Shown in pieces: positions 4,824-61,864 of a stretch of 64,000 nucleotides of DNA. The DNA comes from a phage: sequence record PZ452611.1. One strand, given 5' to 3'. Positions within the stretch are counted from its first letter, which is position 1, and each line of letters begins with the position of its first letter. The notes under the pieces are model-generated. The model saw only the letters and a program-made list of their open reading frames with translations. It was not told the origin of the DNA and made no database searches. The translations under genes and the position numbers were made by a program.

Positions 4824-5090
4824 ATGAAACTAACTCAGTTTTTATGGGGACTGGTTGCGGCATCTGATGACCCTACGAAAGTGTCCCAATCTAAGCTATG
4901 GTCAAACATAGGCATGGCGGTGATGACTGGGGTGTTTATTCATATGGGGTACAATGATACGCTTCCTGAGTGGTATGCGTGGATATATGCACCTTCAGTA
5001 GCCTGCCCCCAGCTTATTAGCAAATTCATCTCGCTCCGGTGGGGTTGCCAGCACCCTGACCACGTTAAAAACGAAGAGCAAAAAGCTTAA
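4824..5090 (+). CDS. small membrane protein
   Basis: 88-aa ORF with RBS agaggg; hydrophobic segment NIGMAVMTGVFIHMGY; position after fibre gene. Confidence 0.45.
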   Translation: MKLTQFLWGLVAASDDPTKVSQSKLWSNIGMAVMTGVFIHMGYNDTLPEWYAWIYAPSVACPQLISKFISLRWGCQHPDHVKNEEQKA

Positions 5091-5099
5091 GGAGAAATC

Positions 5100-6845
5100 A
5101 TGGCGCAAGACATGACAAGCTTCGAGCAGGCGGTAGATCAAGTAATTGTTGATTCTGAACGTTTGCACTTGATTGTCAACGGTAACGCTGTGGATGAAGT
5201 TGTCGTAGAGGATGGGACCACTATCCCTACGGTACGAAAAGCCATGCTTGACACCCTTTATTTTAAAACGCCACCAATCCCTTGGGCGTATGGTGCATCC
5301 ACAACAGTTTTTAACCAGTTGTATGAGTTTAAAGGGGATACAGGCACTCAGTGGTGGTACGCCCCAGCAGCATCAAAATCTAACCCGGTTAGAATGCCAG
5401 CAGATCCTTCACAATCTCCAAACTGGAGATTATACACCGACTCTGCAGTAATGGCAAAATACTACGCAAAACTTAACAGCCCAAGGTTCGAAGGTGACCC
5501 GAGAGTACCTACACCTCCAATGGACGATAAGTCAGAGTCCATAGCAAACACAGAGTTTGTTGTTGACTATGTTGATAGCATATTTAAAGCCATGGAGGGG
5601 ATGAAAGTTACTGTAGGATCTTTGGTGGTAAAAGGTCTTACAGAACTCGCTAACACTATAGTTGGTGGCACCCTTACCTTACATGGACCTGTTAATGGGG
5701 CAGATTCTACTGCACGCTTTAGGAATCTAATCCTCACGGCAAATACTTCTACACTTACTTTTGCGTGGAGCGATCCTAAGCATGCAGACTGGAGAAGTAC
5801 AGAGCTGCAACCTCATGAAGTGTCCACCCACAGGGTTATAGCTGACACTATAACTTCTGGGAAACCAGTGGCTAATAATAACGATGTGCATTTTGATGGT
5901 CTGGGTAATAACTTTTTTGACTACGTGTACATTCGTGGTAATGCCATGAAGGCAGCAACCGAACCGACATTGCAGGTCGATGGGACCACCAGGGTTAAGA
6001 ACCTTGAGGTGACAGGTACCGTTACAGGGATAACATACTCTGTCGATGGCACCATGATCTACCCTAGCTATATTGAAAGCACGGGTGATGCATTGATAAA
6101 TGGCGATTTGGAGGTTGGCGGGTCTGTAGTTATTCGAGGTACAGCCTCTATCCAAAATATAGCTCTGAATACTCTAAGAGTCAATGAGCGTGCAACTTTT
6201 GAAGGAGAAGGGCTTACAGCTAATAAAGGTACAATTACCGAGCTGACCACCACCACTTTAACTGCAACAACTGCAAACTCTGAAAACTGCAACATTACCA
6301 GAAACTTACAGGTAAATGGAGATGTTAGTTTAAACGCCGCAGGGACTGGCACCACCTACCTTCACAACCTTGAAATATCCGGCACAGTGACTGGGTGGCT
6401 GCCAGACTTCTCTAATGTCAACTTTGTTTGTAATGGCATCAACTCCAGTGGTAAGATAACCACCTCTCAAGAAATTGAGGCGGGTAAAACCATTACTGCC
6501 CCTACTTTCCACGCAGGAAAGGTAGATTTTGATTTAGAGGAGGTTGACGCGTCCAGTGGGACATGGACACCTAACGGACAGGCCAGTATGTATGTTGTCC
6601 ACGCTAAAGGGGATTTTACAATAGGTCAGTGGCCTGGGACATCAGCGGAAGATAAACCTTATCCATTCACTGCAGTTATCTATGTAATTCAGGATGCTGT
6701 AGGTCACAACGTGACTTTGCACGATAAGTATGCTATCCTGTCGGCAACACCTGTTATTAACAACAAGGCTAACAGTGTTACCCTGCTGCAATTAACATAT
6801 TGTGGTGTTGGTGATATCGTAGACGTAGTAATTGCACAACGTTAA
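5100..6845 (+). CDS. tail fibre / tail spike-like protein
   Basis: 581-aa ORF, RBS aaggag; repeated short beta-strand-like motifs (VTGTVTG, EISGTVTG, LxVNG) and Gly/Thr/Asn-rich composition typical of fibre shafts; located in tail module. Confidence 0.55.
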   Translation: MAQDMTSFEQAVDQVIVDSERLHLIVNGNAVDEVVVEDGTTIPTVRKAMLDTLYFKTPPIPWAYGASTTVFNQLYEFKGDTGTQWWYAPAASKSNPVRMPADPSQSPNWRLYTDSAVMAKYYAKLNSPRFEGDPRVPTPPMDDKSESIANTEFVVDYVDSIFKAMEGMKVTVGSLVVKGLTELANTIVGGTLTLHGPVNGADSTARFRNLILTANTSTLTFAWSDPKHADWRSTELQPHEVSTHRVIADTITSGKPVANNNDVHFDGLGNNFFDYVYIRGNAMKAATEPTLQVDGTTRVKNLEVTGTVTGITYSVDGTMIYPSYIESTGDALINGDLEVGGSVVIRGTASIQNIALNTLRVNERATFEGEGLTANKGTITELTTTTLTATTANSENCNITRNLQVNGDVSLNAAGTGTTYLHNLEISGTVTGWLPDFSNVNFVCNGINSSGKITTSQEIEAGKTITAPTFHAGKVDFDLEEVDASSGTWTPNGQASMYVVHAKGDFTIGQWPGTSAEDKPYPFTAVIYVIQDAVGHNVTLHDKYAILSATPVINNKANSVTLLQLTYCGVGDIVDVVIAQR

Positions 6846-56929: not shown

Positions 56930-57349
56930 ATGAACATTAAATCTAATAATCCGGCATATAGCTTTGATAACGCTTTTTGTCACGGTCCGGCGGCGAAAGG
57001 ATTCGAAATCGATGGTAAACTAATTATTGTCAATGTTGACGGGGAAGAGGTTGCAGTATATCCGGTGGCAGACGTTAAAAGCCGTTTGCAATGCCGCATG
57101 GATGTTACCGCCTACCAGCTTGATCCGGTCCGCATAGTTGCCCTGGTCCTGGAGGAAGAGATCAAAGCCATGCATCATAGCAATAAGTTTATCGGTGACG
57201 CGCAAGATAATATGAAGGTATGCCGCTATAAAGTTAATGAAGTGCTTAAAGAATACGGCTTCAAAGATCTGATGATCAAGCGTGATGAAAAATTCCGTTA
57301 TCGTAACGACCTGGCAAATCGAATCTATGAAATATACGAATCATTATAA
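56930..57349 (+). CDS. hypothetical protein
   Basis: 139-aa ORF, RBS aagagg. Confidence 0.5.
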   Translation: MNIKSNNPAYSFDNAFCHGPAAKGFEIDGKLIIVNVDGEEVAVYPVADVKSRLQCRMDVTAYQLDPVRIVALVLEEEIKAMHHSNKFIGDAQDNMKVCRYKVNEVLKEYGFKDLMIKRDEKFRYRNDLANRIYEIYESL

Positions 57350-57367
57350 TTTCTTAACTAAACTATC

Positions 57368-57396
57368 AGGGGCTTTAAAAGGCCCCTTTCTTTTGT
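57368..57396 (+). terminator. putative intrinsic terminator ending the early-type cluster
   Basis: AGGGGC-tttaaaa-GGCCCCT hairpin followed by TTCTTTTG. Confidence 0.6.
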
Positions 57397-58329
57397 CTGT
57401 ATTTCTCCTACCACAAACGGCCCAGCCTGGCAAGTGGAATAATTGACTAGCCAGCAATTACCAACACTGTACAAATATACATATAAAATAACTATTGCAT
57501 AATCTTTCATCTTGTGGTAGCAGGGCCATTTTTACACGTTTTCCTTCCAAAATTGCACGTAATGCAGCTATTGCATAAAATTTAACCTGATGCACATCTT
57601 CAATAGCTTGTCAACAACTAAAAATCTTTATAAGTCATACACTTACATAACCACAAAAGCGTGTTCTACGTGAAAAATCGAGTATAACTATAGCCGCCAG
57701 ATCTCAGAATTTACGTACGCTCACCATTCTATAGTCTGCTAAGTATTTATTCCAACCATAGAATAACAGAATAGTCAATACCTGCATAAAATAATTATTC
57801 GTGTAAACTGCATAACATAAATCAGCCGGGGTGTCAACATTTTTCGTAAACGGCTCGAAATTATCACTGTGAGCTATCATAAACAGAGAAATCTTTAGTC
57901 GTCTAATGTTTACTGTACGTTACTATACTAACTGGAATCATTAGATGACTAATAAAAAGATAAGAAATCATTAACAATGCAATTGTTTTATTCATAACAA
58001 TAAGGCAACTATGCAAACGAATGGCATGGCGCGACGGAGTCGCGACATAATATAAAAGCAGTAACCATCACCCCCGTGATAGTTTGTCTGCAAACTATTA
58101 ATCAGATCATAGTTGCCTTGTATTTAGTTAATCATGACATAAACTCAGGCATAGCCTTCGTCTCGAGGATGTTAACAAGCAAGGCAACTATAGATCTTCT
58201 AATAGTTGCCCTGCTTTTATATTATGTCATAGAAACACCCGAAGGGGTGACCAAAGGTCACCTGGCATAGCCAGTGAAATATTGTAAACAAGTTAATTAT
58301 TATCATGCAAACGAATGGCATGGCTTATC

Positions 58330-58500
58330 ATCTCTGTGTAAATAGTTTGTTTGTAAACAGTTTATACGTGAACAGTTAGCTGTGTAAACTATCAGGCATG
58401 TAAGCTATTGAGCATGTAAACAGTAAAGGTCGTGAACAGTAAGCGAGCGAATAGTAATGGCGTGAACAATGACAGCGTAAACAGTCAGGCATGTCAATTA
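58330..58500. repeat. iteron-like array (about 11 direct repeats, period ~15-16 bp)
   Basis: GT(A/G)AAC(A/T)(G/A)T cores (gtgtaaatagt, ttgtaaacagt, cgtgaacagt, gtgtaaactat, atgtaagctat, atgtaaacagt, cgtgaacagt, gcgaatagt, cgtgaacaat, gcgtaaacagt, atgtcaatta) at regular ~15-16 bp spacing in a non-coding stretch. Confidence 0.65.
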
Positions 58501-59953
58501 TGTTCAGTGTGTCACCATTATGTCATATTGTGTCAGACAAGTTTTTCTCCTCTTTGTCAAGTGCTGCATGAAAAATTTACAATCTGGTATGGTAGCATTT
58601 TTGCGGCCCTGTTTACATTCAGTACTGTATGTATAAGCCTTGTTGTGTGGGCGCTTAGACGTCTAGACGGTTGGAAGTCTGCAGGTCAATATCTAATCTA
58701 TTGGTTGCTAACTATATCCCACACAAATAGTAAGAAATGCAATTGTTATATGCGTAAACTGTAACTCATGTTATCAATCCCTGTATGGATCGCCAGTGGT
58801 GCGCATAATAGGTATTATGTTAAATTGCCAGTAATGATAACTATTCTCACAGTGATAGGTATTCTCATTCAACCCCACAAGATAGGTTGCAAATGTTGTG
58901 CCACTGTGTGAACGGCCTCGCCTATTAATTTGCCTCACTGCCTCGATATTTGAGAATTATTATAAGAATGAGAAGTATTCCCATTTCGTCCGCCTGGCAG
59001 CACTCCTGTAGGTCAGGTCAAAATCGGGAGAGAACTGGACCTGTTCAGATATTTCTGGCTGGCTCTTCAGGTCTGTGTGGGAAAAGCCGACCCCTCCGGC
59101 GGCGGGGAGGGGGTCAATTAAAAAATTTACGGGGCATATGAAGCGCTCTTCAGGTAAGGCATGTATTATGGGATGAAACCCTCTTCAGGAAATGATATTT
59201 GTGGGTGTGATATTTGCTGGAAAGCTAGATATGACTGGACTCCTGGCGGGGCAGGGGTAGTACAGACAGGGGAAATATGGGGGATGTAGTTGGGTAAATT
59301 GATCAGGCAGGTAGAGTATGGAATATGTTACGAGTATGTTAAATATGGAGGGTGAATATCTGCAGGATTTGTGTGTAAAATCAAAGACTTAAGTGGTGTT
59401 GTGGTATTTTCTATAAATAATTCAAGTTTAATAGGTGATATTTGTCCCTATCCACTTTGTGTGGTAAACAGATTCAGATGAGATTGGTTTACGAGTGTAT
59501 ACATAATATACAAATTAAAGATACAAGAAACCCCCCTCCCCCTTCGGCTACCATTCACCTTTTCCTCTGACTGGTACTTAAACACTTATTCAGACTCTTC
59601 AGGTTATCACCCATATATCATATGGCAGTGACTGGTGTCCTCCGGCCCCTCTTTCGTCACCCGTCCGCTTCGCCATGCTAATGCCATAGCCAATGGTTCG
59701 GTTGTTCACCCTGTTCACTCAGGTGTATCTCCATACCCCTTCAAACCGAAGAGAACAGAAAACCCGAATTACTCGGTAAAAGAAAAGAGAAGAACTTAAT
59801 TTTATCAGGATAAGCAAGAATGTCAAGGCATGACTGCTCACTAAACAAGCAAACAGTCATGTGTGGGAGGTAAGTGATTGTGGTGGTAGGAAATTTAGTT
59901 GAAAGATGTGTTATAGGTGCTCCCAGCACTTTAGCCGGGTAGCTAATTGTGTG

Positions 59954-60169
59954 TCAGTCCAGCGGTTCATCCTCTACTTCACTGAAATCAATGTTCATGG
60001 TCTCTTCCCAACCATCGATCTCAGCACAAGAGTGAAGTTCTTTAGGGTTTACTCCCAAAGCCTCAGCAACAGAGTCTATATTTAACACCTCTGGCAGGTA
60101 TGATTCATCGAATTCAAGGTAAATCAGGCCACGAGTGTTGTCAGCCCCACCAAATATTTCTATCTTCAT
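59954..60169 (-). CDS. hypothetical acidic protein
   Basis: ORF 59954-60235; internal ATG (M23) preceded by agaggag chosen as start. Confidence 0.4.
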   Translation of the reverse strand: MKIEIFGGADNTRGLIYLEFDESYLPEVLNIDSVAEALGVNPKELHSCAEIDGWEETMNIDFSEVEDEPLD

Positions 60170-60289
60170 GAAATCTCCTCTGGAAATGAGAGTGTGAACA
60201 GGGTTTATACGTTCCAATGCACTGGAATTATGCACGTTTGCCTCTTCAGGCCATGCTTTAGCATGAGGAACCTGTGTGGGCTCGGTGCT

Positions 60290-60595
60290 TCATAGTCTAC
60301 CACCCCTGAACTCTTCGTGCTCAGGCATAATAGAGAACCAGATATCTACGATGTCCTCCCACGTCAGGTCATCAGCCTCAGGATCTATCTGGAGCGAAGA
60401 TGGAGAATCTTCAGAATCGAAGTTTTCCTCTTTCGCTGGCTCAGCCAAGGGACATATAGTCACTCCTTTGGATGTCTCTTCAGATGCATGTGTGTTTATC
60501 ATGTTCCACCCGTGAGTATTCCTGCAACAGCTGCTATGGACGTAATGATCATCAGGATCACCACCAAAACTTCGGACAATGTTTTCATTGTGCAC
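60290..60595 (-). CDS. hypothetical acidic protein
   Basis: 101-aa ORF on - strand, GTG start with poorly spaced RBS; uncertain. Confidence 0.3.
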   Translation of the reverse strand: MHNENIVRSFGGDPDDHYVHSSCCRNTHGWNMINTHASEETSKGVTICPLAEPAKEENFDSEDSPSSLQIDPEADDLTWEDIVDIWFSIMPEHEEFRGGRL

Positions 60596-61558: not shown

Positions 61559-61864
61559 TTATTCTACAGAGCGTTTGAACAGAATGTCTGCCTCGGACAT
61601 GTGCTCAACCTCTTCTTCGATTTTAGCTCGACGTTTTTCAGCCTCATAGCGAATATCGAACTCAGTAGCCACCAGAGATTTGATGAATTTAGGAGAATAC
61701 AGATGATCCTGCTTCTCAACGAGAATGATATCCTTAATGGCATCTTTCAGATCTTTAATCTGAAGTTGGAGTTCCACCAGTTCTTCGATTGTTTTGCGAA
61801 GGCGATCACGCTCTGCAGTGTCAGAAGGAAGAGAGGTGAACAGTTCAACTTTAGATTTAGCCAT
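61559..61864 (-). CDS. hypothetical coiled-coil protein
   Basis: 101-aa ORF, RBS taaggag upstream on - strand. Confidence 0.5.
   Translation of the reverse strand: MAKSKVELFTSLPSDTAERDRLRKTIEELVELQLQIKDLKDAIKDIILVEKQDHLYSPKFIKSLVATEFDIRYEAEKRRAKIEEEVEHMSEADILFKRSVE

Follow-up and report, generated by a model that had tools for sequence, protein, structure and literature searches.

A phased short-repeat array beside the inferred terminal repeat of Escherichia phage rV5 as a candidate packaging or end-processing platform

The window analyzed here, a stretch of 64,000 nucleotides of phage DNA (PZ452611.1), carries a phased array of short direct repeats within the final 200 bp of unique sequence ahead of the inner edge of a direct terminal repeat (DTR), the ends being placed by homology to phage HdK5. 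From its sequence, the array is best filed as a new, non-homologous DTR-flanking short-repeat array of the T7 SRL/SRR type. We consider, with a probability of roughly 45%, that it serves as an accessory protein-binding platform for terminase or for the processing of genome ends. The preliminary description of this DNA had put forward an origin of replication in a convergent gap; the feature is now moved to what would be, with ends by homology, the concatemer junction of rV5.

Between positions 57400 and 59950, the window is 100% identical to Escherichia phage V5/rV5 (Vequintavirus; NC_011041, minus strand) and 90–95% identical to ~120 Vequintavirus records. Transcription converges in this region, as gp159 (+ strand) ends at 57349 and gp158 (- strand) at 59954. 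No feature is annotated between the two in the rV5 record (57350–59953), and no gene lies within ~1 kb of the array on either side, which bears out the large non-coding convergent interval first described. The published rV5 map marks the gp159–gp158 stretch as 'non-coding', and the rV5 paper does not define an origin. Positions 58000–58800 are the least conserved part of this 2.5-kb region (75–90% identity, compared with 92–95% over its entire length). Identity to HdK5 is 85% over 57366–58420, which includes much of the array, and 93–95% over the DTR and the right flank. No publication describing the rV5 array was found, and its only trace in the records is an unlabelled 'repeat_region' in that of phage isim.

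Table 1 Repeats and inferred genome ends in the non-coding region, in window coordinates.
Feature	Position	Strand	Description
Left anchor ATGCAAACGAATGGCATGGCTTATCAT	58305..58331	+	Second copy of a perfect 20-bp direct repeat; first copy at 58011-58030
A-type array	58338..58492	+	10 direct units, core GT(A/G)AAC(A/T)(A/G)T, unconserved spacer of 6-7 nt, period 15/16 bp
B-type array	58493..58535	+	Five (T)GTCA repeats, period 9-11 bp, directly after the A-type array
Inferred inner terminus/cut TGTCA|GACA	58535..58536	.	Right virion DNA end in the HdK5 orientation
Inferred DTR	58536..58994	.	459 bp, base-for-base match to the HdK5 DTR; single copy here
Inferred outer terminus ...CGTCCGCC|TGGCAGCAC	58994..58995	.	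Left physical end in the HdK5 orientation
CTCTTCAGG repeats on the other DTR flank	59063..59189	+	Three copies; possible counterpart array, not periodic

The motif GTRAACWRT matches exactly 14 times on both strands of the 64-kb window, where 5.4 matches are expected and 100 shuffles never gave more than 11. Seven of these matches fall within 58353–58485, all on the + strand, so the core proposed from the letters alone was correct. Calling units as GTRAACWRT with up to two mismatches, in phase, gave A-type units starting at 58338, 58353, 58368, 58384, 58400, 58416, 58432, 58447, 58462 and 58477 (Table 1). With a transitional unit at 58493, the total comes to 10–11 same-strand cores, matching the roughly eleven repeats of the preliminary description. 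The successive spacings, this last unit included, are 15, 15, 16, 16, 16, 16, 15, 15, 15 and 16 bp; the self-identity of the array peaks at lags of 15–16 and 30–32, and the ~15–16 bp period claimed before is thereby upheld.

Within the rV5 array, mean pairwise identity reaches 0.77 among the 9-nt cores but only 0.29 among the 6-nt spacers. This lack of similarity between spacers explains why Tandem Repeats Finder detects no more than 2.4 copies here (58383–58421). The (T)GTCA repeats that follow start at 58493, 58502, 58511, 58522 and 58532, and the last of them (58532–58535) ends at the inferred terminus. The extent originally given, 58330–58500, thus holds for the A-type part but ends too early, as the (T)GTCA sub-array runs on to 58535. 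Two extra cores of the GTRAACWRT type lie inside the DTR, at 58611 (- strand) and 58754 (+ strand). The only other exact GTGAACAGT near the region, at 61836–61844 inside the 5' part of the gp153 gene, is probably there by chance.

To see how the array varies, rV5 was compared with the homologous segment from 18 further Vequintavirus genomes (n = 19). The anchor ATGCAAACGAATGGCATGGCTTATCAT stands directly left of the array in 18 of the 19, the V18 copy being lost, and the segment measures 103–257 bp in the 18 genomes that keep it. In all 19 the segment ends in TGTCA directly before GACAAGTTTTTCTCC, with the ECP2303 and Aya records stopping at TGTCA, and all 19 possess the TGTCA repeats. A-type units are spaced by 15 bp 36 times, by 16 bp 32 times and by 30–32 bp 11 times across the set (68 of the 80 intervals measure 15 or 16 bp), and the GTCA repeats by 9 bp (16 times), 10 bp (15 times) or 11 bp (8 times). 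Core positions carry 1–2 bits of information and most spacer positions ≤0.25 bit.

The copy number of the A-type unit varies widely, from none in V18, one in bov11CS3 and two in Aya to ~12 in typing phage 4. In a MAFFT alignment of nine rV5-type arrays, close relatives differ by indels of 16, 31 or 32 bp, that is, by whole units, so that the phase of the array is kept. Conserved cores and phase, combined with free spacers and free copy number, show selection on cores and phase. This contrast between core and spacer is, as far as sequence can tell, the signature of a repeated protein-binding site. The earlier reading of the repeats as an array for a DNA-binding protein fits the conserved cores, free spacers, strict phase and retention in 18 of 19 genomes, and such binding may be predicted for rV5.

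The same variability could suggest a by-product, namely a minisatellite formed and rearranged by imprecise cut-and-fill at the terminus, unequal exchange or slippage during replication and having little or no function of its own. The copy number is highly variable, the indels come in whole units, and nowhere in the 2.5-kb region is conservation lower than around the array. In addition, the cut-site sequence itself occurs within the TGTCA units, and neither V18 nor the sister genera possess the array. However, a neutral minisatellite should homogenize or decay over its whole unit, whereas here the cores are conserved and the spacers randomized. Moreover, three divergent array types all keep to the 15/16-bp phase, and 18 of 19 genomes retain the array at precisely the same location, which makes this explanation quite improbable.

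In V18 (NC_041937; locus ~600–700), the whole A-type array and the second anchor are gone and a T12 run stands in their place, although the DTR edge and the TGTCA repeats are still there; V18 is either a deletion mutant of natural origin or the product of a collapsed assembly. Judged from the sister genera and the IMG/VR scan described below, the array appears genus-specific and, given V18 and bov11CS3, would not be strictly essential. Natural Vequintavirus variants with 0 to 12 copies offer ready material for tests of array function.

The position of the array relative to the genome ends was derived from its relatives. The HdK5 record has an exact 459-bp repeat at both ends, its left end mapping to window position 58994 and its right end to 58536. 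Korf et al. deduced terminal redundancies of 458 bp in HdK5 and EdH4 from abrupt PacBio read ends. Window positions 58536–58994 correspond to record positions 1–459 in HdK5, EdH4, ECP2309, bov10K2, bov22_2 and Aya, and the records of HdK5, EdH4 and ECP2309 hold a second copy elsewhere (for HdK5, at the other record end). Across 118 records, this segment is 92–96% identical with almost no change in length.

The breakpoint of the ECP2303 and Aya records is precisely 58535|58536, and those of HdK5 and bov11CS3 start at 58994; at least four groups have produced records whose start or break coincides exactly with one of the two inferred terminus nucleotides. The inner cut, TGTCA|GACA, is a 4+1+4 palindrome (TGTC-A-GACA), half of which is formed by the final TGTCA repeat. 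On this homology, 58536–58994 is probably the DTR of rV5 as well, with fixed ends there. This would imply fixed ends and a 459-bp DTR for the reference phage, whose genome was called circularly permuted in the rV5 paper, and it provides candidate cut sites at the nucleotide level, TGTCA|GACA and GTCCGCC|TGGCAGCAC. One Vequintavirus study obtained a PhageTerm 'headful' call. The public rV5 record, whose start is arbitrary, is linearized at another place and contains one DTR copy only. Having the right ends is important in genome annotation, in phage engineering and for packaging-based vectors. As the array abuts the inner DTR boundary, a packaging or terminus site, which the preliminary description had mentioned in passing, is better supported than an origin.

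Sister genera share the ends. Mydovirus KPP-1 has a DTR of 514 bp, established by twofold coverage and PhageTerm ('T7 type'), and Phapecoctavirus Schickermooser a 329-bp DTR at the syntenic place. In both, the two DTR edges fall at nucleotides homologous to the rV5 boundaries. At the inner edge, where the KPP-1 DTR edge is homologous, TGTCA|GACAAGTT..TTGTCAAG aligns with TGCTA|AACACAAT..TTGTCAAG; at the outer edge, GTCCGCC|TGGCAGCAC of rV5 aligns with GTCCGTC|TAGCAC of KPP-1 and GCGTTA|AGCAC of Schickermooser. Neither a GTAAAC-type nor a TGTCA array is present beside the DTR of KPP-1 or Schickermooser, and the syntenic non-coding region of Septuagintavirus A73 lacks an array of the rV5 type. 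A pattern scan of IMG/VR revealed no second phage lineage with three phased cores; its matches were one further Vequintavirus contig and, in giant-virus contigs, unrelated perfect tandem repeats of 15–16 bp.

Under the packaging or end-processing reading, the concatemer would run from the gp159 side through the anchor, ten GTRAACWRT repeats, five TGTCA repeats, the cut TGTCA|GACA, the 459-bp DTR and the second cut to the gp158 side. The repeated cores would be putative binding sites of an oligomerizing phage DNA-binding protein, the likeliest candidate being the small terminase subunit or an accessory factor of packaging or end processing. Once bound, this protein might load beside the inner cut and help to direct or enhance both cleavage by the terminase and processing of the DTR. 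The TGTCA repeats, spaced by about one helical turn, could act as a proximal positioning element that guides the complex onto the cut, and the GTRAAC repeats, spaced by 1.5 turns, as a dispensable enhancer that tolerates changes in copy number rather than as an essential core. In T7-like phages, a concatemer junction contains one DTR copy, the terminase makes specific cuts and the second copy is synthesized (PMC10438801), and in T3/T7 packaging specificity maps within 5% of the genome termini (PMC3276506).

The A-type array cannot be the core recognition site of this terminase lineage, because V18, bov11CS3 and Aya carry only 0–2 copies and KPP-1 and Schickermooser do without it. With a period of 15–16 bp, neighboring sites also point to opposite sides of the helix, an arrangement not easily fitted to simple wrapping around a ring of terminase small subunits. 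None of the 15 open reading frames (ORFs) of at least 300 aa in the window matched a terminase Pfam family; introns interrupt the large-subunit gene, as stated in the rV5 paper. When ten small ORFs on the flanks were scanned with Pfam and PHROG for a cognate DNA-binding protein, the only result was gp153, assigned to PHROG 639 'transcriptional regulator' and located ~1.6 kb away.

A more specific version, which we regard as possible but rather doubtful, is that a DTR-type terminase of a large myovirus uses the paired arrays as its loading ramp, with the natural copy number tuning efficiency. The small terminase subunit or an accessory protein would polymerize on the GTRAACWRT repeats at 1.5 turns and hand over to the TGTCA repeats at one turn, the last TGTCA site would be cut, and the copy number (0 to ~12) would tune the efficiency of packaging or end processing. 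If true, the Vequintavirinae would have their first defined cis-acting packaging element, and the unexplained terminal arrays of the T7 type could be approached in a tractable system.

The closest structural parallel is found in T7. We re-derived its left end as a 160-bp DTR followed by 13 copies of the CCTAAAG type with a period of 12–13 bp (nt 175–338); additional copies occur within the DTR as well as on the right flank. These short-repeat arrays flanking the terminal repeat were reportedly named SRL and SRR by Dunn and Studier in 1983. To our knowledge, their role has never been settled, and nothing usable on the function of SRL and SRR was found in the literature.

The T7 and rV5 arrays are alike in having ~10–13 same-strand copies of a 7–9 nt core, spacers that bear no relation to one another, a short and constant period falling between whole helical turns, and a span of ~160 bp. 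Both begin within ~15 bp of the inner DTR boundary, and both systems have extra core copies within the DTR. The rV5 array shows the copy number, core, spacers and constant short period (in the range of 12–16 bp) expected of a T7-type array and, by homology, its position on the unique side of the DTR edge. In contrast, the two have no sequence similarity, and their periods differ (12–13 bp in T7, 15–16 bp in rV5). Unlike T7, rV5 has a second sub-array (TGTCA) with a helical period that ends in the cut site, and the right flank, which in T7 repeats the core of the left, carries a different, sparse and non-periodic repeat in rV5, CTCTTCAGG. Lastly, rV5 is a 138-kb myovirus and T7 a podovirus. Phage SP6, whose DTR is 174 bp long, has copies of the CCTTAGT type with a period of ~12 bp at roughly nt 225–350. 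This array sits a few tens of base pairs inward of its left terminal repeat, a layout comparable to that of rV5, but core and period differ and the phage family is unrelated. DTR-flanking short-repeat arrays, long known in T7-like podoviruses, would recur without homology in a genus of therapeutic phages.

Repeated motifs beside a terminase cut are also known from the R sites of lambda cosB, the pac hexamers of P1 and the pacL/pacR boxes of SPP1, which comprise 3–7 copies, are essential and show conservation in step with their terminase. The TGTCA sub-array of rV5, with its period of ~10.5 bp and its end in the cut, is most like these sites, and the array as a whole stands directly beside the inferred terminase cut. 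The A-type array differs from them in that it has up to ~12 copies, varies in copy number and does not occur in relatives that share the ends.

A replication origin, in which iterons would be bound by a phage initiator that melts the adjacent DNA and loads the gp230 primase-helicase, was the leading proposal of the preliminary description and now appears very improbable. Origin iterons, such as those of lambda ori, P1 oriR and the iteron plasmids, are directly repeated cores with variable spacers in a non-coding stretch, usually ~2 helical turns (~21–23 bp) apart, with an AT-rich unwinding element and the initiator gene within or beside them. The rV5 array resembles them in its direct, putatively protein-binding cores, its variable spacers and its regular arrangement inside a large gene-free region. 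However, its period of 15–16 bp corresponds to ~1.5 turns instead of whole turns. There is no gene within ~1 kb, and the flanking ORFs have no match to an initiator family. When local AT content was compared with that of the window, no discrete AT-rich block or unwinding stretch was seen in the array or its flanks (61% in the array and 64–67% in the flanks, for a window average of 56%).

The rV5 paper places a change of GC/AT skew at record positions 104425–105475 (~58492–59542 in the window), which would be compatible with an origin, but its authors ascribe this change to the switch in transcription direction. T7 has secondary origins adjoining its end-proximal promoters phiOL (at nt 405) and phiOR, so that an origin near a terminus would not be absurd. 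Against it, the replication genes of rV5 are 20–30 kb away, viable relatives carry anything from 0 to ~12 copies, and KPP-1 and Schickermooser, compared in the region of the ends, have the same termini without the array. The literature yielded nothing usable on an origin, on iterons or on a pac site described for rV5-like phages.

A role linked to the genome end other than packaging can be imagined, namely in ejection or first-step transfer, end protection, DTR synapsis for concatemers, or as a transcription roadblock. The array would be the first unique DNA after the left DTR, it is surrounded by converging transcription, terminator-like hairpins and promoter-like sites, and the injection-stop region of T5, rich in repeats, offers a parallel. 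The dispensability suggested by V18 and bov11CS3 speaks against an essential entry signal, and we consider such roles unlikely.

Other readings of the repeats were discarded. A scan for sigma-70 promoters and for terminators gave nothing in the array beyond weak promoter-like matches, and the spacing of the cores does not fit a -35/-10 geometry. The sole ORF across the array (58432–58764, 110 aa, GTG start) cannot be conserved, because relatives differ by indels of 16 and 31 bp. A CRISPR-like array was rejected, with cores of only 9 nt and spacers of 6–7 nt. An Rfam scan of 57000–60300 at E ≤ 1 returned nothing in the array and two sub-threshold matches, both over the gp159 terminator. Two resemblances, both short, were noted: the iteron of the P4 alpha protein, TGTTCACC, is similar to GTGAACA in reverse complement, and the TGTCA repeats are similar to the PhoB box.

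Several further elements were observed around the array and the DTR. The symmetric module directly to the left of the array (58000–58330) contains a perfect 20-bp direct repeat, ATGCAAACGAATGGCATGGC, at 58011 and 58305, a perfect 18-nt inverted repeat (58044–58061 and 58211–58228), four ATAGTTGCC sites of alternating orientation and two terminator-like hairpins placed face to face. An AACCATC...GATGGTT hairpin like that of this module was seen by eye in Schickermooser and KPP-1. The module could be a bidirectional terminator, a source of small RNAs or another binding site.

A near-consensus sigma-70 promoter on the - strand (59799–59826; TTGACA, 16 nt, TG-TAAAAT) lies on the gp158 side and is directed at the DTR, and a TTGTCA-18-TACAAT element on the + strand (58554–58583), the TTGTCAAG part of which is conserved in KPP-1, lies just inside the inner DTR edge. 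The two recall the T7 promoters that flank the concatemer junction.

Just outside the outer DTR edge (59050–59500), the + strand is strongly G-rich, with a GC skew of +0.4 to +0.53, GGGG runs and TGTGGG motifs. Five of the six matches to CTCTTCAGG in the window are found at 59063, 59146, 59181, 59595 and 60242, all on the + strand, for 0.47 expected in the whole window. Their positions are conserved in HdK5, and single copies occur in KPP-1 and A73. The syntenic region of A73 (locus 5050–5110 and 5690–5870) has repeats of its own, ACA(A/G)GTTGGA in four copies and CTCTGTGG.CAA in about seven copies every ~20–25 bp, and a duplicated block of ~55 bp.

Finally, ~18 'Campylobacter phage' records of the MG0656xx series (A13b, C15, A147 and others) are 93–96% identical to Escherichia coli Vequintavirus in this region. 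Some are marked UNVERIFIED, and they are probably mislabelled or contaminant assemblies.
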